Source of the DNA: Candidatus Woesearchaeota archaeon
GTDB taxonomy: Archaea > Nanobdellota > Nanobdellia > Pacearchaeales > GW2011-AR1
Assembly (NCBI GenBank): GCA_964430085.1
Contig: CAYSES010000002.1
Coordinates: 1 to 41,703, forward strand
Length of the DNA: 41,703 nt
Reading direction: 5' to 3'
In this document: positions 31,651-41,569 of the stretch, in pieces
How the letters are laid out: the number at the start of each line of letters is the position of its first letter
How positions within the stretch are numbered: the first letter of the stretch is position 1
Position numbers and translations under genes: made by a program
Notes under the pieces: generated by a model
Told to the model about the DNA's origin: nothing
The model's input: only the letters and a program-made list of their open reading frames with translations
Database searches by the model: none

Positions 31651-34600
31651 CTAGAACCATTTTTTTATGCTTTCTTGCTTTTCTAATTCCTTACCAAAAA
31701 TACTGTCAATATTATCTTTTAATATTTGAAGGTTTTGTTTTATATAAGTGGAAAGATTATATTTATTTGCTAAGTCCAATGCAGGCTCTAAATATTTTTT
31801 AATTCCACCCTCATTAATTGTAAAGATTATTTTTCCGCCGCATTTTTGGCATACTCCTGTAAGAGGCGGTCTCCTCATAATTTCATTACAGGCAACACAT
31901 CTAAATCCCTGCATTGAAAATTTTCTTAAGTTACCTTTTAGGTCTCTAAGAAAATGCCTGTCAATAATTAATTTTGCTGTATCAGAAGTATCAACTGCTC
32001 TAAGTTTTTCTACAAGGGCCATTTGATGAGTTACCTTGTCCTGCATTGTTTCTAAAAGTTTATATGAAGAACAAAGAACGCCATCATTAAAGTTAGAAGT
32101 ATCATGGGTATACCCCATCCCGATAAAAGGATTTTTTCCTTCTTTCAAGAAAAGTTTTACATTATTCATCTTTAATTCCGATGAATGTTTTCGTTGTTCA
32201 GCTAATTGATATAATTCAATAGGATACTCATTTACCAATTCAAAATCAAGTATTTGGTCATCTACTTCCCCTGCATCTATTTTTGCATTTAAAACAAGCG
32301 GTGCATCCTGTGTTCCTCCTCTATGCCCAGGAAGGAATTTTCTTGAAAAATTTAATAGAACATCCCCCAATAACATGATAGCAGCTTCATCCCCATCACA
32401 ATCCCTCCTTATCGCGGCATGCATATATGGAGAGGCTAAAAGTCCTAGGGTACTTGAAAACCCAATAAATCTGCAGATTACTCCTGCACAATTATGGGGG
32501 GCCATACAAACCCCCATCTGCCCAACTAAATCTTCTCTTTTTTTAACATTATAAAAAGGTTTAAGTCCATAAAAATTAGTCAAAAGAAAATCAATAAATT
32601 CACAAATTCGAACAAAAACATCATCAGCTCTTTCCTCTGTTGATTCTGGGGAACATGGAAGAATTACATCATGAGGCATTAATTCTATAATCTGATTTTC
32701 ATCGACAACAGCTTTTCCATAAATATCCTTGCAATATCCTAATTCTTTTAATTTTTCTATACTTACAGAAATTTCTTTTGGTTTAAATGAAACAATAGGT
32801 AATTCAGTTGCATCATATCTTATAGTTCCATCTTTATTTACCTGAAGATTATAAATTGACCTTGCCACTCCTTTGAAAAGATTTTCTAAATCATGGTTTT
32901 GAGACGAAGTTCCCCTAACTCCTTTAATTAAAGGAGGAATTTCTAAATTTGAAAGTTTTAATTTTTCAATTGCCTTATCAAAATAATATTTTATATCCAA
33001 ATCAAAAGTATGGTAATCATGAACCTTTTTATGTTCCTTACAAAGATTTAAAGAAAGTTTATCACATTCCGGACAATAAAAAAGTTTTTTACATTTTGTT
33101 CCGCAAGTCTCACAAGCAGTATAAATTGTTTCTTTCTTACAATTATCACAAAAATAAACAGGGAAAGTGCTTCTCACTTTTCTTTCTTCACACGCAGCCT
33201 GCACACTTCTTAATCTTCCTCCTTCCTTACCAACAGGGAAAAGAATATTTGGACTTCCAATCAGCTTTCTTAATTTGGCCTTTTCCGGCCTTCCCATTCT
33301 TGCACCAATAAATTCTCCTGCTTTATCTTTTATTACAAATTCTGATAAAGAATTTATAATTTCTAAAATAGATTTATCAGAATCAAATACAGTTTCATCT
33401 TTAACTAATGAATTTTTTGAGGTTGTTGAGAAATTTAGCCCTAAATTCAAAAGCAAAGATTTGCTATTTACCTCGTTTAAAACAACATTTTCTATTGTAA
33501 CATCATGTTCTATACCTAAAAGTTCCAAAGCTCTTTTCCCTAACTTAAATTTTTCCTGTTCAGATTTATTATACGGAAATATAACCTTTCCCTCAAAACG
33601 GGCATGTTTTAACCAATTTATCAAACCAGAAAATTCTTCACGAGAAATTTGTGTCCAATAAAAAATATAAGTAGGGTGAAGAGGAATATCAAATTTCTTG
33701 CTTATCTCAATTGCTTTTTCAAAGGAAACATCTAGATAATTTATTTCTTTAGCTAATTTTTCATTTTTTTGTTTCAATTCAAGGGCCCACCATTCTTCAA
33801 CATATCCCGGTTTAATTAAAGTAGAATTCCTATTTACTACATCGCTAAAAGGGAAGAGCATATCCCCCAAATAGATTATTTCATCAACATCAGGGTATAG
33901 TTTTTTAGCTTCTTCTTTTGTTTTTAATTTTTTAACACTTCCATTAAATAATTTTACAATAGGCCCATCTATAGAATCACAAGAAGTAACAACACATCCT
34001 TTTGTAGGCTTTTCTATTTTTAATTGAGTTCCAATAGCAATAAAATTATCAGTAATAGCCATTGTTGCAGGATGGACAGAAGTAGCACTGAAACCTGAAA
34101 CTCTGCTTCTCCCATACCTGAATCTAAATGCCCCAGACATAGAGGGGTGCCCAAAAACAGGTCTTCCTGCAACTAAATCCTTAATATAAGTAGGGGAATC
34201 TTCTGTTTTTCCAACTTCACGTTTCTCATGAATTTTAACATAATCATCAAGAAAATCCCATCCTGTAGAATTAAATCCTTTAGATTTAACTTCTTTCAAA
34301 AGACGCAGCCCTTTTTTGGCTTTTTGTGCAAGGCCTTCTGAAAAAATCAAACACATTCCCCCCCTAATAAAATTTGTATCTACCCTTGACAAATTTTTAT
34401 AATTTGAAACCTCTTTTTTTTCAGTAGGATCTCCTGCAATTTGAAAAGGAAGATTCCTTGCAAGGAATTCGGCCTCTTCTTCAGTAGGAAGATATTGTAA
34501 ATTGGTGATATATTCATGATAGTCATAATTTTCTGTGACATATCTTTTAATTTCTTCTTCAGAGGGGTCAAACTTTGCATAACCAAAAAGTTCCCTAAGA

Positions 34601-35100
34601 TAATCAATTAACATCAAAACAACACAGCTAGCAGTTGTTCCAGCACTTCTTATAGGCCCTGAAAAGCTGGCAATAAAATATTCTTTATTATCCCTTGTCC
34701 TACCAATTTTAAGCCCTGTAAATCCTTCAATTGGACTTGAAACAACGCCTAAAGTGGTATATGCAAACCCAATTCTAATTCCCGCATCAATTGCTTCTAA
34801 TAAACTTGCAAATTTACAAAATTTTTGTTTAGCAACTTCTTCAGCGATTCTGAATGAAACTGCCATATTTAACTTTCCAAATTCTTTTTCTAATTCTAAA
34901 ATTCTCTTATCAATCCCTGAACTTTCCATCTGAGGATAGATAGTAGAGATTAATCCAACAACTTTTTCTGCCAAACTTCGTGCAAGAGGAATTTCAACTT
35001 TTTCTACCGGGTCAAGATTCTTTGCTCTTGCTTCATTTGCAATCTTATATATTATTTTAACATCTTTTTCCAAATCAGCAAAATATTTTGGGGTGTTCAT
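31651..35100 (-). CDS. dp2: DNA polymerase D (Pol II) large subunit DP2
   Basis: 1149 aa. The N-terminus, internal Zn clusters (CDNCKKE...CETCG...CPECD) and C-terminal CVACN...CQKCGG are all typical. 4-nt overlap with dp1. Confidence 0.95.
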   Translation of the reverse strand: MNTPKYFADLEKDVKIIYKIANEARAKNLDPVEKVEIPLARSLAEKVVGLISTIYPQMESSGIDKRILELEKEFGKLNMAVSFRIAEEVAKQKFCKFASLLEAIDAGIRIGFAYTTLGVVSSPIEGFTGLKIGRTRDNKEYFIASFSGPIRSAGTTASCVVLMLIDYLRELFGYAKFDPSEEEIKRYVTENYDYHEYITNLQYLPTEEEAEFLARNLPFQIAGDPTEKKEVSNYKNLSRVDTNFIRGGMCLIFSEGLAQKAKKGLRLLKEVKSKGFNSTGWDFLDDYVKIHEKREVGKTEDSPTYIKDLVAGRPVFGHPSMSGAFRFRYGRSRVSGFSATSVHPATMAITDNFIAIGTQLKIEKPTKGCVVTSCDSIDGPIVKLFNGSVKKLKTKEEAKKLYPDVDEIIYLGDMLFPFSDVVNRNSTLIKPGYVEEWWALELKQKNEKLAKEINYLDVSFEKAIEISKKFDIPLHPTYIFYWTQISREEFSGLINWLKHARFEGKVIFPYNKSEQEKFKLGKRALELLGIEHDVTIENVVLNEVNSKSLLLNLGLNFSTTSKNSLVKDETVFDSDKSILEIINSLSEFVIKDKAGEFIGARMGRPEKAKLRKLIGSPNILFPVGKEGGRLRSVQAACEERKVRSTFPVYFCDNCKKETIYTACETCGTKCKKLFYCPECDKLSLNLCKEHKKVHDYHTFDLDIKYYFDKAIEKLKLSNLEIPPLIKGVRGTSSQNHDLENLFKGVARSIYNLQVNKDGTIRYDATELPIVSFKPKEISVSIEKLKELGYCKDIYGKAVVDENQIIELMPHDVILPCSPESTEERADDVFVRICEFIDFLLTNFYGLKPFYNVKKREDLVGQMGVCMAPHNCAGVICRFIGFSSTLGLLASPYMHAAIRRDCDGDEAAIMLLGDVLLNFSRKFLPGHRGGTQDAPLVLNAKIDAGEVDDQILDFELVNEYPIELYQLAEQRKHSSELKMNNVKLFLKEGKNPFIGMGYTHDTSNFNDGVLCSSYKLLETMQDKVTHQMALVEKLRAVDTSDTAKLIIDRHFLRDLKGNLRKFSMQGFRCVACNEIMRRPPLTGVCQKCGGKIIFTINEGGIKKYLEPALDLANKYNLSTYIKQNLQILKDNIDSIFGKELEKQESIKKWF

Positions 35101-36671
35101 TCATCCTCCTTTTCTTCAAAATCTAAAATTTTAATTGCTCTTGTTTTAAGATTAAACATAGGAATTTTACAAAAATCAGGCTCATTGCCCATTTTTTCCT
35201 GATAAGGAGTTTTGCTTTCCCAAGATGATGAAGAGATTGTCAAAATATTATTATAATAAGAGACGGCACTTTTGTGAGTATGAGCAGAAACAAAAATATC
35301 AGGAATCTTTTTTATGATTAATAAATCTTCTTCTGAAGGAAAATATTGTATTGAAGAATGAGTCGGAGCAAGATGTCTGTTTTTTAAAAGATATGCCATT
35401 ATTTTATCGGGGGATTCTAACGCATCGGCTTTAATTAATTTAGGAATATTATTTGCATAATAATGAAAAGAAACCCCATGATAAGTCAAAACATCAAACC
35501 CAGAAAAATTTCCAGTTGCTCCAATATTAACATAGGAAGGATTTCCGGTAAAAATAGCATTTTTCAGATCATAAAGGCTCCAAGCATATCTGTCATTTAA
35601 CAAAGGTTGGGGTTCCATTAATCTAACACCATCATGATTTCCCGGAGAAATAATTATCTTAATATCCTTCCTTATTTTTTTAAGAATTTCTGAAAGTCCG
35701 ATAAATTGTTCTTCAATATCTTTTATTTCTAAATCTCTTTCTTGATTTGGATAATTTCCTACTCCTGCAATTACATCTCCTACAAGAAAAAGATATTTTA
35801 TTTTTTTAGATTCTGGAGTATTAGGAAGATTTCCATTAATATAATTTATAAATTTCAAAAAATTCTGCTTCAAAAATAATTTACTTCCAAAATGTAAATC
35901 CCCTAAGAATAAAGCATATTCATCAATTGGAGATCTTTTTCTTTCATATAGCCTAGCTTCAGGAAAGATAATATTATTTGCAAATATGATTTCCCTATCT
36001 CCAAATCCGCTAAAACCTAATACAGAATCTAAACTAATATCCTCAGCCTTTTCGTATAATTCTGAATTGTTTTGGTTTATCAAAACCCTTATTTTACCTG
36101 TTAAATCTTCTACCTCAAGTAACATATTTCTATTTTTAGTTATATATCTTTTTGAAACAATTCCGATTATAGAAATAGCCTGTCGATTTGATGAAAGTTT
36201 ATTTATAGAAATAAGGTTTCTTAAAGAAGAATTATTTTGTAAGATTCCTTTCATTTCAAAAAGACGATTTCTAAAATATTTTATGAAATCAGATACTTCT
36301 AATTTTTTAGTAGTGGGGGTAATAAAAGGGGACAAAACCTTTACATTATCTTTATAATTTATTATTTGTAAAGATTTTTCTTCTTTAGAAAATTCCTTAG
36401 AAATTTCAATACTCAAACCTAATTTAATTTTTAAGCCTTCTAATTGTTGTTGATTTTCTTTTGGTAGATCAGAAAAAATTTGAAAAACCTTATCTTTGTT
36501 TTTATTAAAAAGAGTTTTAGTAATAATCCTTTGGTTAGTTGAATCTCTTATTTTTTCAATTATTAATTTAGCAGATTCTATATCTGTTGTTTCATTAAGT
36601 ATATTTAAAACTTCGTTATCTAATAAAAAACCTTTTTCCAAGCAAAATTTTAGAATCTCTTGAGTATCCAT
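35097..36671 (-). CDS. dp1: DNA polymerase D small subunit DP1 (Mre11-like phosphoesterase)
   Basis: Calcineurin-like motifs LGDLHFGS, GDV, GNHD and HTH. It lies between orc1 and dp2. Confidence 0.9.
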   Translation of the reverse strand: MDTQEILKFCLEKGFLLDNEVLNILNETTDIESAKLIIEKIRDSTNQRIITKTLFNKNKDKVFQIFSDLPKENQQQLEGLKIKLGLSIEISKEFSKEEKSLQIINYKDNVKVLSPFITPTTKKLEVSDFIKYFRNRLFEMKGILQNNSSLRNLISINKLSSNRQAISIIGIVSKRYITKNRNMLLEVEDLTGKIRVLINQNNSELYEKAEDISLDSVLGFSGFGDREIIFANNIIFPEARLYERKRSPIDEYALFLGDLHFGSKLFLKQNFLKFINYINGNLPNTPESKKIKYLFLVGDVIAGVGNYPNQERDLEIKDIEEQFIGLSEILKKIRKDIKIIISPGNHDGVRLMEPQPLLNDRYAWSLYDLKNAIFTGNPSYVNIGATGNFSGFDVLTYHGVSFHYYANNIPKLIKADALESPDKIMAYLLKNRHLAPTHSSIQYFPSEEDLLIIKKIPDIFVSAHTHKSAVSYYNNILTISSSSWESKTPYQEKMGNEPDFCKIPMFNLKTRAIKILDFEEKEDE

Positions 36672-36672
36672 T

Positions 36673-37887
36673 TTAATAAGATAGGGAATTTAAGATAATT
36701 TCTTTTACTTTATCAGTAATATCTTTGGTAATCGCTAATTTAATTTCCCTCATTCTTCCACCTCTCCCTTTTGAAATAACATTAACAGTAATAATTCCAA
36801 GCATGTCAAATTCCTGTATAATATCACTTACCCTTCTTTGAGTTAATGTTTCTAATTTATTTTTTATACATAAATCTCTGTAAAAATTATAAACTTCTCC
36901 TGTAAAAAGATGATGAGATGGAGTTTTTTCTGATAATTGTATAATTGAATTTAAAACAATCTGAAATTGTTTAGGCTCTGATTTAATAACATCCAAAATT
37001 TTGTCTCTTTCTATTTTATCATTAGCTTCATCAATATATTTTAAATAAATCTTTTTTGAACTGTCTCTTTCAGCAAGCTCTCCCGCTATTCTTAATAAAT
37101 CTAAAGCTCGCCTAGCATCTCCATGTTCTCTCGCTGCAAGAGCAGAACATTTGGCAATAACACCTTCTTGTACAATTCCTTCCTTAAACGCTTCTTTAGC
37201 CCTTCTATTTAATATATCTTGTAATTGAAGGGCATTATAAGGTGGAAAAACAATTTCTTCCTCTGAAAGAGAACTTTTGACTCTTGGATCTATTTGGTCT
37301 AAAAAAGTCAGGTTGTTACTAATACCTACAAGACAAATTTGAGATTTTGAGAGTTCAGAATTAATTCTAGTAAGATTATAAAGAAAATCATCTGAAATTT
37401 TTTTGGTTGTTTGATCTATTTCATCTAAAATTAAAACAATTAACTGTTTAGAAGAATCAATAACATCAATAAATTTATCATATACAGATTGGGTAGGAAG
37501 TCCTGTAGCAGGAACTTCATCTCCAAATTTTTTGATTAACTCTGCTAATATCCTATATTCTGTATCAGAAACCTTTTTTAATTTACAATTTAAATATTCT
37601 ATTTTTAATTTGAAATCTGCATCTTTTTTAGTTCTTTTTAATAATTCATCCTTAATATATTGAATAGAAAGAGTTTTGCCAGTCCCTGTTTTTCCATATA
37701 AAAAAAGATTACTGGCTCTTTCTCCCCTAAGAATAGGCGCAAGAATAGAAGCTATTTGTTTAATTTGTTTGCTTCTATGAGGAATTTCTTCTGGCTGATA
37801 ATTATTTTGCAGCATAGATTTATCTTTAAAAATTCCATTATTATCAAAAGCTTCAAAAATTTTATCAAGTTCATTATTCATAACCAT
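36673..37887 (-). CDS. cdc6: Orc1/Cdc6 replication initiator
   Basis: Walker A YGKTGTGKT, Walker B LILDEID, and a C-terminal winged helix (RRVSDIIQEFDMLGII...GRGGRMREI). Confidence 0.95.
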   Translation of the reverse strand: MVMNNELDKIFEAFDNNGIFKDKSMLQNNYQPEEIPHRSKQIKQIASILAPILRGERASNLFLYGKTGTGKTLSIQYIKDELLKRTKKDADFKLKIEYLNCKLKKVSDTEYRILAELIKKFGDEVPATGLPTQSVYDKFIDVIDSSKQLIVLILDEIDQTTKKISDDFLYNLTRINSELSKSQICLVGISNNLTFLDQIDPRVKSSLSEEEIVFPPYNALQLQDILNRRAKEAFKEGIVQEGVIAKCSALAAREHGDARRALDLLRIAGELAERDSSKKIYLKYIDEANDKIERDKILDVIKSEPKQFQIVLNSIIQLSEKTPSHHLFTGEVYNFYRDLCIKNKLETLTQRRVSDIIQEFDMLGIITVNVISKGRGGRMREIKLAITKDITDKVKEIILNSLSY

Positions 37888-37888
37888 C

Positions 37889-37917
37889 TCTCCCCCACTT
37901 TAATTTCCTATGGAAAT
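37889..37917 (-). repeat. ORB-like box 1
   Basis: The minus strand reads ATTTCCATAGGAAAT-TAAA-GTGGGGGAGA. It ends 1 nt from the orc1 ATG. Confidence 0.7.
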
Positions 37918-37989
37918 AAAAATAATTTGGAAATACCTCAACGATAATTATTTGAATAAATTATATAAATGATTATAACTACTAAGAAA

Positions 37990-38017
37990 GAAAAACACCT
38001 TTATTTCTTATGGAAAT
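37990..38017 (-). repeat. ORB-like box 2
   Basis: The minus strand reads ATTTCCATAAGAAAT-AAA-GGTGTTTTTC. Its core is exactly 100 nt from box 1. Confidence 0.65.
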
Positions 38018-38125
38018 TTATTTTTTTAATAAAATATTTTATTAATTATATATTATATATTATATATTATATAAATTTTTATAATAATAATAAGAATAAA
38101 TAAAACAAAAAATTCTTTTATAAAT
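38018..38125. other. candidate duplex unwinding element containing (TTATATA)4 at 38046..38073
   Basis: 108 nt with 3 G/C by direct count. Bracketed by inverted ORB-like boxes 2 and 3. Confidence 0.65.
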
Positions 38126-38153
38126 ATTTCCATTAGAAACTGAGGAGTGAGTG
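38126..38153 (+). repeat. ORB-like box 3 (inverted relative to boxes 1 and 2)
   Basis: The plus strand reads ATTTCCATTAGAAAC-TGA-GGAGTGAGTG. Confidence 0.65.
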
Positions 38154-38237
38154 TATAATAACTTTGCCTTTAATATCCTTCCAAAATCTATTTAATTTTA
38201 CAGAAAAGTTTATAAATTATTTTCTTTTAAGTTGGAT

Positions 38238-39020: not shown

Positions 39021-39290
39021 ATGAGAATTTCTGAAGAAAAAAAAGAAAAAATTTCTGAACAAATATTAAATTTACTTTATTCATCTTCTCCAAAACCCTT
39101 ATTTACTTTAAATATAGCTAAAGAAATAGCTAGGGATGAAGAATTCATTAAATCTTTATTACTCAATCTGAAAAAAAAGGATTTAATAATAGAAATTAAA
39201 AAGAATCCTAAAGGAAAACCTTATCTTAAAAGATCTAGATGGAAATTAAGTGACAAAGTTTATCAATTCTATAAAAGCCGCCAAACTTAA
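39021..39290 (+). CDS. small winged-helix-like DNA-binding protein
   Basis: 89 aa. ISEQILNLLYSS...FTLNIAKEIARDEEFIKSLLLNLKKKDLI followed by a basic wing (KGKPYLKRSRWKL). Confidence 0.5.
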   Translation: MRISEEKKEKISEQILNLLYSSSPKPLFTLNIAKEIARDEEFIKSLLLNLKKKDLIIEIKKNPKGKPYLKRSRWKLSDKVYQFYKSRQT

Positions 39291-39328
39291 ATATAAATCC
39301 TTAAATATTATTATTTAATAAAAAAAGA

Positions 39329-39988
<660 letters not shown>

Positions 39989-40107
39989 TTATACTTTTCC
40001 TCTTCACCGAATAACTTAAAATCTCTTTTTCTGATTATTTCTCTCTTTTTTTAAATTTCTCTATCCTTCCTCCTATTTAATTCTCCCTTTGTCTGTTTTA
40101 CCTTATT

Positions 40108-40722
40108 TTATTTAGTTTTTTCCCTATTTTTCTTTCTACTAACTCTCACTTTTGTCTTTTTTAGCATCTTTTCTTTCATTTCTTCAGGTATAAACACTCT
40201 TTTTTTACCATTCTTCTCAATATCTTCCTCTATTAAACCCTCACTTTTCTGTTTTATAGCATTAATTTGCCCCCTAATTGTAGACCTCTCTTTTCCCAGC
40301 ATAGCAGCGAGATCATCATAACTCAACTTTAAATCACTATTCAATAAAATCCATAATATAGCTCTTTCAGTTACTGAAAAAACCTCTAAATTTGGTGTTT
40401 GAACACCTGTTTGAACACCTGTTTGAACAGTATAAACAGCTGTTTGTTTCTTAAACGCCCGTTTGGGTGTTTTAAACAGCGTGTTTGTTTTCAAATCATT
40501 CATTACAGAAATTACATTTTTTAATCCTTCAACATCATCTTTTATCGTCGACAAAATTTCCTTTATATCATCAATCTCTTTTTTTTGTAAATTTTTCTCG
40601 GAATCAAGGTGTTTAATCCATCCACTTACTGAAATTATGTCTTTTTTAACAGAATCAAATCCTTTTTTTGTTTCTTCTTTTATATCATCAATCTCTTTTT
40701 TTCTTCTAAACAATCCGAACAT
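40108..40722 (-). CDS. coiled-coil / VQTG-repeat linker / C-terminal HTH protein (architectural paralog of 39329..39988)
   Basis: KKEIDDIKE occurs twice in the coiled coil. Linker TAVYTVQTGVQTGVQTP. HTH VTERAILWILLNS...LAAMLGKERSTIRGQINAIKQK. Confidence 0.65.
   Translation of the reverse strand: MFGLFRRKKEIDDIKEETKKGFDSVKKDIISVSGWIKHLDSEKNLQKKEIDDIKEILSTIKDDVEGLKNVISVMNDLKTNTLFKTPKRAFKKQTAVYTVQTGVQTGVQTPNLEVFSVTERAILWILLNSDLKLSYDDLAAMLGKERSTIRGQINAIKQKSEGLIEEDIEKNGKKRVFIPEEMKEKMLKKTKVRVSRKKNREKTK
40396..40431. repeat. three tandem 12-mers TGTTTGAACACC/TGTTTGAACACC/TGTTTGAACAGT inside the CDS
   Basis: Direct reading. They encode (GVQT)n on the minus strand and create two RAACACCTGTTT sites (40401, 40413), adjacent to a perfect palindrome AAACAGCTGTTT (40434..40445). 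Confidence 0.9.
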
Positions 40723-40856
40723 ATAACTTATTATAAAAATATCTTTAAAAATGTTTGGTTTTTCGACGTTGTTACCCTAAAAAAAGATTAAAAAAATTAG
40801 CCTTTTTTCTCTTAAAATTTTTTAATTTTATGAAAAAAATAAAAAAAAAGACAGGC

Positions 40857-40910
40857 AAACACCTGTTTTAAACAGCCTTAAACAGCTGTTTGTTTTTCAA
40901 ACACCTGTTT
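40857..40910. promoter_or_regulatory. array of three 12-bp (near-)palindromes AAACASCTGTTT plus a half-site
   Basis: AAACACCTGTTT at 40857..40868, half-site AAACAGCC at 40870..40877, AAACAGCTGTTT at 40880..40891, AAACACCTGTTT at 40899..40910. They lie in the 346-nt spacer between the HTH gene and cdd. Confidence 0.6.
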
Positions 40911-41068
40911 ATTAAAAGAACTAACCTAACCTTAGTGCACGCCCCCCGATTTATGTTTTTATAAAAATAAACAAACAAACGAATTTTTTTAAAAGAAATT
41001 ATAATTAAGATAAAAAGAATATAATAAATATCAACAATCTTTTTATATTCTAATAATTAAAAATTTTA

Positions 41069-41569
41069 ATGATTGAAGTGAAATATGATGATTTAGATGA
41101 TATTGAAAAGAAAATTCTTGAAGAAGCAGACATAGTGAAGGAAACAGCCTATAACCCGTATTCTCATTTTTATGTAGGGGCTGCACTTTTATCTTTAGAC
41201 AGTCAAATAATTTCTGGTTCCAATGTTGAAAATTCTGCATATGGTTCAACTCTTTGTGCAGAAAGATCTGCAATTTTAAGGGCAAATGCTATGGGAATAA
41301 GAACTTTTTCTAAACTAGCAATAATTGCGCGAGGAGAGACATTTAATACTAACGAAGTAACTGCTCCATGTGGTGCTTGTAGACAAATGTTATATGAAGC
41401 TTCTCAAATTTCTGAAGTAAATCTAGAAATAATTCTTTCTACTACAAAAAAAGATAAGATCATCAAAACAACAATTAATGAACTTTTACCTTTAGGATTT
41501 GGTCCGAAAGACTTAAGTATTGATATTGAAAAGTATAAAAAACTAAGATCACCTAAGTTCACAAAATAG
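41069..41569 (+). CDS. cdd: cytidine deaminase
   Basis: Zinc motifs CAERSAI and PCGACRQ. 166 aa. Confidence 0.9.
   Translation: MIEVKYDDLDDIEKKILEEADIVKETAYNPYSHFYVGAALLSLDSQIISGSNVENSAYGSTLCAERSAILRANAMGIRTFSKLAIIARGETFNTNEVTAPCGACRQMLYEASQISEVNLEIILSTTKKDKIIKTTINELLPLGFGPKDLSIDIEKYKKLRSPKFTK

Follow-up and report, generated by a model that had tools for sequence, protein, structure and literature searches.

Inside the gene for a 204-amino-acid (aa) helix-turn-helix (HTH) protein of a Candidatus Woesearchaeota archaeon, in the DNA that encodes the linker between two domains of the protein, lies an array of a 12-bp palindromic motif, and a second array of the same motif lies upstream of the gene. 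We find that selection inside the gene acts at the nucleotide level: repeated sites within the coding sequence (CDS), in the interdomain linker, are selected as DNA and not as peptide alone. The feature is real, lies far beyond chance, is deeply conserved and is more unusual than a first-pass annotation of this DNA had supposed. The analysed window is the whole 41,703-nt contig CAYSES010000002.1, with a GC content of about 30%. The HTH gene was taken from the list of open reading frames (ORFs; 40108-40722, minus strand, start ATG at 40722). As the contig ends 981 nt upstream of this gene, the window cannot show farther-upstream sites that are present in other genomes. We read both patches as putative protein-binding sites, most likely for the gene's own product and serving autoregulation or bridging, a reading to which we give somewhat less than an even chance; within it, the own product is the most likely binder and autoregulation the most likely outcome.

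Sites in the window and selection on the linker-coding DNA

A search of the window with the pattern RAACASCTGTTT returned eight strand-hits corresponding to six sites, compared to 0.03 expected from dinucleotide shuffles, none of which attained eight. Inside the gene, GAACACCTGTTT is found at 40401 and 40413 and AAACAGCTGTTT at 40434, followed by the degenerate unit AAACGCCCGTTT at 40453 and the 13-mer AAACAGCGTGTTT at 40474. Upstream of the gene, AAACACCTGTTT is located at 40857 and 40899, AAACAGCTGTTT occurs again at 40880 and a half-site AAACAG lies at 40870. Each of these positions had been given in the first-pass annotation and was recovered by pattern search or direct reading; the same holds for its statement that the window contains no further copy, since outside 40401-40445 and 40857-40910 no seventh exact RAACASCTGTTT site was found in the window. 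As direct repeats, the two patches are separated by about 446 bp. The 17 nt reported as identical between them (40433-40449 and 40879-40895) are indeed identical, and the similarity reaches farther than first stated, to 32 nt at 88% identity. The underlying inverted repeat has the form AAACA-N2-3-TGTTT, and its units often run on from one another as ...STGTYYAAACAS.... Hereby, the intragenic array TNTLFKTPKRAFKKQTAVYTVQTGVQTGVQTPNL (40387-40488, minus strand) comprises codons 79-112, with AAACA-N2-3-TGTTY repeated six to seven times in head-to-tail order, and the upstream array (40857-40910, minus strand), which is positioned 135-188 nt 5' of the ATG, consists of three full 12-mers and one half-site and reads AAACAGGTGTTT-N7-AAACAGCTGTTTAAGGCTGTTTAAAACAGGTGTTT in sense orientation.

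The motif is conserved at the DNA level in about 140 species. Comparisons among close relatives rest on a sample of 80 loci, each from a different species and with flanks of up to 10 kb per locus. Within the repeat VQTxVQTxVQT, codon choice differs strongly from that elsewhere in the same genes: Gln is encoded by CAA in 233 of 233 cases (64% elsewhere), Thr by ACA in 220 of 230 (62%), Gly by GGT in 110 of 111 (35%) and Ala by GCT in 34 of 35 (46%), and the Val codon GTA, which makes up 23% elsewhere, is used in none of 232 cases. Non-preferred codons are likewise fixed in the block, i.e. CAG for Gln88 (54/55) and GTG for Val89 (46/49). The per-codon entropy is near zero from F83 to L112, and the coiled coil and the winged HTH (wHTH) domain vary as saturated synonymous sites should. 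Concomitantly, the codon identity of synonymous pairs amounts to 0.89 in the block compared to 0.56 in the wHTH domain (Mann-Whitney p = 5e-10), and the linker DNA is the least variable of the HTH gene. The freezing of codons was reproduced in 28 loci fetched through a different peptide. In 63 distant genes fetched via wHTH peptides, the same block uses GTC for Val in 109 of 177 cases (9% elsewhere), CAA for Gln in 182 of 185 and ACT for Thr in 2 of 185 (35% elsewhere). Since the frozen codons are seen in loci fetched by peptides outside the linker, retrieval bias is excluded as their cause.

The variable residue x of the repeat is G, A or P, encoded as GGT, GCT or CCT, which corresponds to the free central SS of the DNA motif. 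Tandem units in one gene tend to shift together, e.g. to all GTC or all GCT. In distant subfamilies, STGTYYAAACAS units strung together make up the linker DNA, and the 10-mer TGTYYAAACA is translated there as xVQT in 140 cases, as [LV][SF]K[QH] in 54 cases and once, in the third frame, as CPN. In the close family, the first unit is either the 12-mer AAACAGCTGTTT (peptide PKQLF) or the 13-mer AAACAGGGTGTTT (peptide TNRVF), and this difference in spacing switches PKQLFKT to TNRVFKT. The perfect junction GTTTAAAC is unusable in the VQT frame because it makes a TAA stop; the gene has GTTCAAAC or GTCCAAAC in its place. As the DNA unit is kept across changing reading frames, what is conserved is the word in DNA (or RNA), with the peptide as its consequence.

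That the motif might be a generic repeat, which had been named at first pass as one of the outcomes that would refute the idea, is not borne out in 474 kb of flanking DNA. Beyond the gene and its 400 nt of upstream sequence, we counted 25 exact sites in these flanks, compared to about 0.5 expected; 24 of them lie on the upstream side, where they reach to about 3 kb, and one lies downstream. A generic chance match is thus excluded, both by this excess and by the extra sites themselves, which are non-random in their codons. Copies of AAACAGCTGTTT that encode the peptide KQLF lie on the upstream side of the HTH gene, at a distance of about 2.2 to 2.8 kb, at the 3' ends of serine recombinase genes (L007, L010, L011, L037 and L077) and in a HAD hydrolase gene (L050, L053 and L063, and as near-variants in L055). 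KQLF is encoded exactly as AAACAGCTGTTT in 12 of its 17 occurrences, compared to 1% by codon usage, which argues for DNA-level selection on sites outside the HTH gene too. A viral or mobile origin was considered and rejected: no relative of the HTH protein was found in IMG/VR, and paired sites gave two matches in 2.9 million viral contigs, the one examined being an unrelated giant-virus EETPVS repeat.

The HTH protein and its upstream region

The AlphaFold2 model of the 204-aa protein (built from a 44-sequence alignment; mean predicted local distance difference test, pLDDT, of 87) predicts a long helix (residues 3-78), a disordered linker (79-111) and a wHTH domain with a C-terminal helix (112-203). 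The wHTH fold is predicted with pLDDT >90 and contains helices at 117-128, 135-142 and 146-159 and strands at 165-168 and 174-177. In contrast, the pLDDT falls below 50 at residues 88-104, coinciding with the frozen codon block. Best structural matches in Foldseek are the Lrs14-type AbfR2 (6cmv, E 2e-4), MepR, MarR and SlyA; the resemblance of the C-terminal domain to Lrs14/MarR-type DNA-binding regulators supports a wHTH protein as binder. By sequence, the protein belongs to no curated family: Pfam yields a weak HTH_11 match (19.4 bits, cut-off 25), and the precomputed Pfam field is '-' in all 120 listed homologues. We found 2923 homologues at E <=1e-3, the best 120 of which are 74-100% identical. 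All homologues with a label are DPANN or Nanoarchaeia (Woesearchaeota or Pacearchaeota where named), and the family is narrow, as judged from 187 matching clusters at 50% clustering. In the recognition helix, T148, R150, G151, Q152 and N154 show little or no variation even among family members with as little as about 25% identity, and the AAACA core of the DNA is constant across the same span.

No variation in the peptide QTGVQTGVQTP is seen among 27 homologues with 74-85% identity. Because the VQTG stretch falls within the disordered residues 79-111, the most conserved peptide of the protein lies in a segment predicted to be unstructured. The term linker, under which the first-pass annotation had described this segment, therefore agrees with the predicted disorder, but the variability that had been supposed for it was wrong. 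As a side observation, 64 of 80 species retain Met74 (approximately 40501-40503), a short distance downstream of the TCGTCGATAAAA island; translation might conceivably start internally at this position, giving an isoform of linker and wHTH domain that lacks the coiled coil. Another small island of synonymous constraint, close to the 3' end of the gene, comprises codons 191-194 (approximately 40141-40152), where K191-V192-R193-V194 is codon-fixed as AAA GTG AGA GTT, with GTG for Val192 in 78 of 78 cases.

Relative to the ATG, the sites in 78 species loci form two main groups, 126 at -350 to -100 and 119 at +200 to +300; about 30 sites lie farther upstream and two in the roughly 3 kb downstream. 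The sites are kept along with the protein, a comparison for which the first-pass annotation had called: an upstream site, scored by the full inverted-repeat pattern at -350 to -100, is present in 75 of 77 close orthologous loci. The upstream region shows a recurrent order. From distal to proximal, it begins with an inverted repeat GTGCACTWAGG...CTWAGT, proceeds through arrays of GSTGTTT(A/G)(A/G)ACAG units, a TTATCGWCG element, the core GSTGTTTAAACAG(G)CTGTTT, a T-run and often another AAACAGCTGTTT, and terminates in ATCGWCG-AAAAACAAAAC-ATTTTTAAA about 20-30 nt before the ATG.

In the window, the inverted repeat GTGCACTAAGGTTAGGTTAGTT (40919-40940, minus strand) marks the distal edge of this region. 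Across the 80 loci, 55 copies of GTGCACTWAGG-N3-5-CTWAGT were found at -200 to -690, and in the orthologous upstream regions all 36 occurrences of GTGCACT lie on the sense strand, with none on the antisense strand. The repeat may bind a protein or form a small hairpin; some of the changes in it are partly compensatory (ACTTAGG...CCTAAGT compared to ACTAAG...CTTAGT). Directly 3' of the upstream array lies the T-run (40832-40849, minus strand, sense strand), whose position is kept in most orthologues and which might act as a bend, as a spacer or as a T tract resembling a terminator. The likely promoter (40740-40768, minus strand) consists of TCGACG (40763-40768), an A-rich stretch resembling a B recognition element (BRE) and TTTTTAAAGATA (40740-40751), which, from its position some 20-30 nt 5' of the ATG and from what is generally known of archaeal promoters, we take to be the TATA box; the string ATCGWCGAAAAACAAAACATTTTTAAA at the promoter is present in nearly all orthologues. 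Some distant loci have a site immediately adjacent to the TATA box (TTTATAAACAGCTGTTT), where operators of archaeal repressors typically lie.

The gene and its upstream region share a second element, TCGTCGATAA (40542-40553, minus strand), which is read as L57-S58-S59-I60 and in which rare TCG codons are fixed (Ser58 in 70 of 76 cases, Ser59 in 50 of 56). In orthologues, TTATCGWCG(A) occurs in the middle of the upstream array as well as just 5' of the BRE and TATA box, the copy in the window being that at 40763-40768. Upstream and intragenic units moreover vary together: loci with TGTCCAAAC-type units in the gene also have TGTCCAAAC-type units upstream (mean 47% compared to 7%; Spearman 0.59, p = 8e-6, uncorrected for phylogeny). 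The central dinucleotides of the upstream units are GG in 189 cases, GC in 206 and CC in 15, and they correlate weakly with those of the intragenic units (rho = 0.21, p = 0.08), so that ongoing gene conversion is not indicated. Two loci, L069 and L075, have long ORF-poor upstream regions (-600 to -3000) with five extra exact sites each.

Proposed own-product binding, the origin neighbourhood and rival readings

In the mechanism that we propose, the HTH protein would oligomerise through its long N-terminal helix, with the wHTH domains held on flexible tethers by the disordered linker. Such an oligomer could occupy the upstream cluster, 100-350 bp from the promoter, and the intragenic cluster, about 420-450 bp away, together, and this joint occupancy would control the gene's own transcription by looping and/or as a roadblock. 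The linker peptide KQTAVY-VQTG-VQTG-VQTP would then largely be the translation of the site array and not the cause of its conservation. The first-pass annotation had likewise proposed operators for an HTH dimer; of this proposal, the conservation of both patches, the nucleotide-level selection and the co-varying variants speak for operators, with the own product as candidate binder. The co-conservation of recognition helix and AAACA core fits the own product as binder, and does not prove it.

Several observations weigh against this reading. The binder may be another protein. The half-site centres are 7 bp apart, which is tighter than in typical wHTH-dimer operators, and the spacing of the units is variable (10, 12 or 13 nt). 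Under the strict full-site pattern, 49 of 54 distant loci have intragenic sites and 16 of 54 have an upstream site; as upstream sites are thus scarcer than intragenic ones in distant loci, promoter control may not be the core function. Upstream units are strand-biased in sense (GGTGTTT 179, AAACACC 15; L003-L086), which a symmetric dimer site does not predict. Finally, simple autoregulation leaves the extra copies at the 3' ends of the neighbouring recombinase and HAD genes unexplained.

The surroundings of the gene were also considered. A convergent paralogue of 219 aa (39329-39988, plus strand), which like the HTH protein consists of a coiled coil, a linker and a wHTH domain, occupies the same position in 74 of 80 loci. 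Its linker-coding DNA carries a box similar to an origin recognition box (ORB), TTTTCCACTGGAAATCAAGGGGTTCC, followed by (ACAG)n (39581-39646, plus strand; peptide FSTGNQGVPTDRQTDRQTDRQT); across species, the linker peptide has the form STGNxGVPTDRQTDRQT. The element matches the ORB pattern of a dyad TCCAnnGGAAA followed by a G-string, and its consensus in the CDS, TTTCCAcaGGAAATgaaGGGGTT, matches that of the cdc6-proximal oriC in the same loci, TTTCCAtagGAAAt.aa.GtGtGgG. Here, too, codons are frozen: in 72 species, Ser is TCC in 72 of 72 cases (15% elsewhere), Gly is GGG in 72 of 72, Asp is GAC in 61 of 61 (36% elsewhere) and Gln is CAG in 63 of 69 (35% elsewhere), the sole variable positions of the box being two bases in the middle of the dyad. 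In the loci scanned, the (ACAG)n repeat is confined to the paralogue CDS and no noncoding array of it was found. A box homologous to that in the paralogue CDS, TTTCCAnnGGAAAnnnAGGGGCTTCGACAC, is located between array and promoter of the HTH gene, at -100 to -230, in L014, L032, L038, L043 and L074 and in weaker form in L017 and L042. A pattern scan for an ORB-like box with G-string upstream of the HTH gene gave 7 of 80 loci, and reading by eye gave a partly different list of eight loci with such a box between array and promoter. Judged from sequence, a putative cis element embedded in linker-coding DNA is a property common to the HTH gene and its paralogue.

Beyond the paralogue lies the canonical oriC (37888-38231), between a PRC-barrel gene and the Orc1/Cdc6 gene (36673-37887, minus strand), followed by the genes for the PolD subunits DP1 (35097-36671) and DP2 (31651-35100). 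The origin contains an ORB at 37888-37917 (minus strand) and a second one at 38121-38147 (plus strand), which is inverted relative to the first, an ORB-like dyad at 38005-38019 and an AT-rich (TATATTA)n stretch flanked by the inverted ORBs. The start codon, the convergent paralogue and the nearby origin with Orc1/Cdc6 are all as the first-pass annotation had placed them. Synteny with oriC is kept in three other genomes (L002-L004; protein identity 74-85%), in the order variable genes, array, HTH gene, convergent paralogue, genes of about 96 and 142 aa, PRC-barrel gene, oriC, Orc1/Cdc6 and PolD. Within the literature searched, no paper links ORBs, DPANN and the HTH protein, and a 2026 preprint on Nanobdellota is silent on it.

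This neighbourhood gives rise to an alternative, a minority possibility of real weight, in which the arrays would be iteron- or centromere-like landing pads of an origin-proximal chromosome machinery. The HTH protein, its paralogue, an 89-aa winged-helix protein, or these jointly with Orc1/Cdc6, would bind them and organise, segregate or license the oriC region. Consistent with it are the conserved gene order through oriC to PolD, the nucleotide-frozen ORB-like box at the same linker position in the paralogue and the ORB-like boxes upstream of the HTH gene in a minority of loci. The greater universality of the intragenic array compared to the promoter-side array and the one-sided spread of sites, 24 at up to about 3 kb upstream compared to 1 downstream, also point this way, and a precedent exists in phage lambda, where four iterons and an AT-rich stretch lie in gene O (PMC3349717). 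Against it, the 12-mer was not found in the oriC region (37888-38231) in a pattern scan of the window and orthologous loci, and direct reading of the window revealed no distinct AT-rich block flanking the intragenic array that could serve as an unwinding element. The viral contigs of IMG/VR hold no relative of the HTH protein, although iteron replicons would be expected there. Among the features of a partition centromere, clustered repeats beside an HTH gene near the origin are present, but a partition NTPase as neighbour is not: the scanned ORFs of the window and the 20-kb contexts of L002-L004 contain no ParA, CbiA or actin-like gene, and no SegA- or SMC-type partner gene was found in the 20-kb neighbourhoods. 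The centromere-type cluster suggested at first pass hence gains from the conserved synteny and the ORB-like boxes and loses by the missing NTPase gene and the absence of the motif from the origin. A more specific form, in which the convergent wHTH genes beside oriC belong to a replication or segregation apparatus of DPANN archaea and their linker DNA (the array in one, the Orc1 box in the other) acts in cis, appears unlikely to us. If the replication or segregation reading were true, it would represent a cellular archaeal counterpart of the lambda origin inside gene O, would imply that a lineage-specific protein binds a second, hitherto unrecognised class of sites near the origin and would make both linker peptides mere translations of cis elements.

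The remaining explanations fare less well. A role at the RNA level, in which the GSUGUUY/AAACAG units of the mRNA and of a hypothetical upstream transcript are recognised by an RNA-binding protein or fold into a structure that controls translation or stability, would account for the strong sense-strand bias of the upstream units, and the T-run after the array could then be an archaeal terminator. The block in the window indeed folds better than shuffles (z = -2.8), but this is expected from any run of palindromes, and RNAalifold on 51 orthologous blocks gave -2.8 kcal/mol with a covariation term of 0.01. Rfam yielded no match at the gathering threshold, nor at E up to 1 over 39200-41100, and ARAGORN found no tRNA. 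A conserved RNA fold of the intragenic block is thus not supported, and the TATA-abutting sites would fall upstream of the transcription start. As there is neither covariation nor an Rfam match and these sites would not be transcribed, a role at the DNA level is favoured and one at the RNA level is decidedly unlikely. Very improbable is a purely historical origin, in which the upstream patch is a decaying duplicate of the linker, or both patches are selfish mini-repeats, and the peptide alone is selected. The alignment of the patches over 32 nt and the concerted change of tandem units within the gene would be in line with it, but upstream arrays keep their place in 75 of 77 species in which synonymous sites have reached saturation, intragenic codon choice is frozen down to non-preferred codons, the DNA unit is retained while the reading frame changes, and paired sites are virtually absent from viral contigs. 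We regard as barely credible the idea, also raised at first pass, that the upstream array acts as a silent donor cassette from which recombination generates variants of the linker. A direct-repeat arrangement with 17 nt of identity and a distance of about 446 bp would suit such a cassette, but the linker is invariant in the 27 close homologues and is the least variable DNA of the gene, and the central dinucleotides of the two patches correlate weakly; the cassette reading is thereby refuted.

Significance and comparison with known systems

The arrays are a case of overlapping codes, in which every synonymous site of about 90 nt of coding DNA is frozen in species that are otherwise saturated. 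High conservation of a peptide motif within a disordered linker can hence be an artefact of a DNA element, which bears on the annotation of uncultivated lineages. To our knowledge, DPANN archaea lack a genetic system, and hardly any of their regulators are characterised; these archaea would gain here a concrete candidate pair of regulator and site, with a small protein and a site defined to the base. The position beside oriC, together with an Orc1-type box in the sister gene, would moreover offer a route to the coupling of origin architecture and gene control.

Upstream and intragenic operators a few hundred bp apart, which permit a repression loop, are known from lac O2 in lacZ and gal OI in galE. 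The spacing of the sites, here about 420-450 bp, is alike. However, lac O2 and gal OI are single sites in a target gene and not in the regulator's own, and they dictate no conserved peptide, whereas here a six-unit array is found. Structurally, the wHTH domain of the 204-aa protein has its best match in the Lrs14/AbfR regulators (AbfR2). Lrs14 controls its own expression through several sites that it binds at its promoter, and we know of no intragenic sites described for these regulators. Proteins of the Lrs14/AbfR type comprise about 110-130 aa and are devoid of the 78-residue N-terminal helix and the 33-residue linker; their sequence similarity to the HTH protein is undetectable, in line with the weak HTH_11 match as the sole Pfam result.

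Clusters of parS sites lie near oriC as well, and one parS is located inside spo0J of B. subtilis, the gene of its own binder. The likeness consists in palindromic sites clustered near an origin. Yet parS has outer arms TGTT...AACA around a 6-bp core, compared to AAACA-NN-TGTTT here, and the neighbourhood of the HTH gene contains no ParA- or ParB-type genes. With the archaeal ORB, it is the linker DNA of the paralogue that agrees in dyad and G-string TTTCCAnnGGAAAnnnnGGGG, as do the cdc6 ORBs of the same loci; in contrast to these, the paralogue box lies within a CDS about 1.5 kb from the origin, and the 12-mer motif itself is unrelated to the ORB.

The closest precedent is the origin of phage lambda, which lies within gene O, with other lambdoid initiator genes as comparable cases. 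In lambda, the iterons of the origin encode the flexible segment between the two domains of the O protein. Four such 18-bp iterons lie within gene O and are bound by O (PMC3349717). Both cases thus have an array of repeated sites within the CDS of the binder, which is putative here, at the position of a flexible linker. Compared to lambda, no adjoining AT-rich unwinding element is seen here, a second array lies upstream of the promoter, the DNA is an archaeal chromosome and the protein combines a coiled coil with an Lrs14/MarR-like wHTH domain instead of being an O-type initiator. In conclusion, binding sites within the CDS of their own binder are already known; what would be new is their occurrence on an archaeal chromosome, beside oriC, as a DNA element that dictates the peptide.

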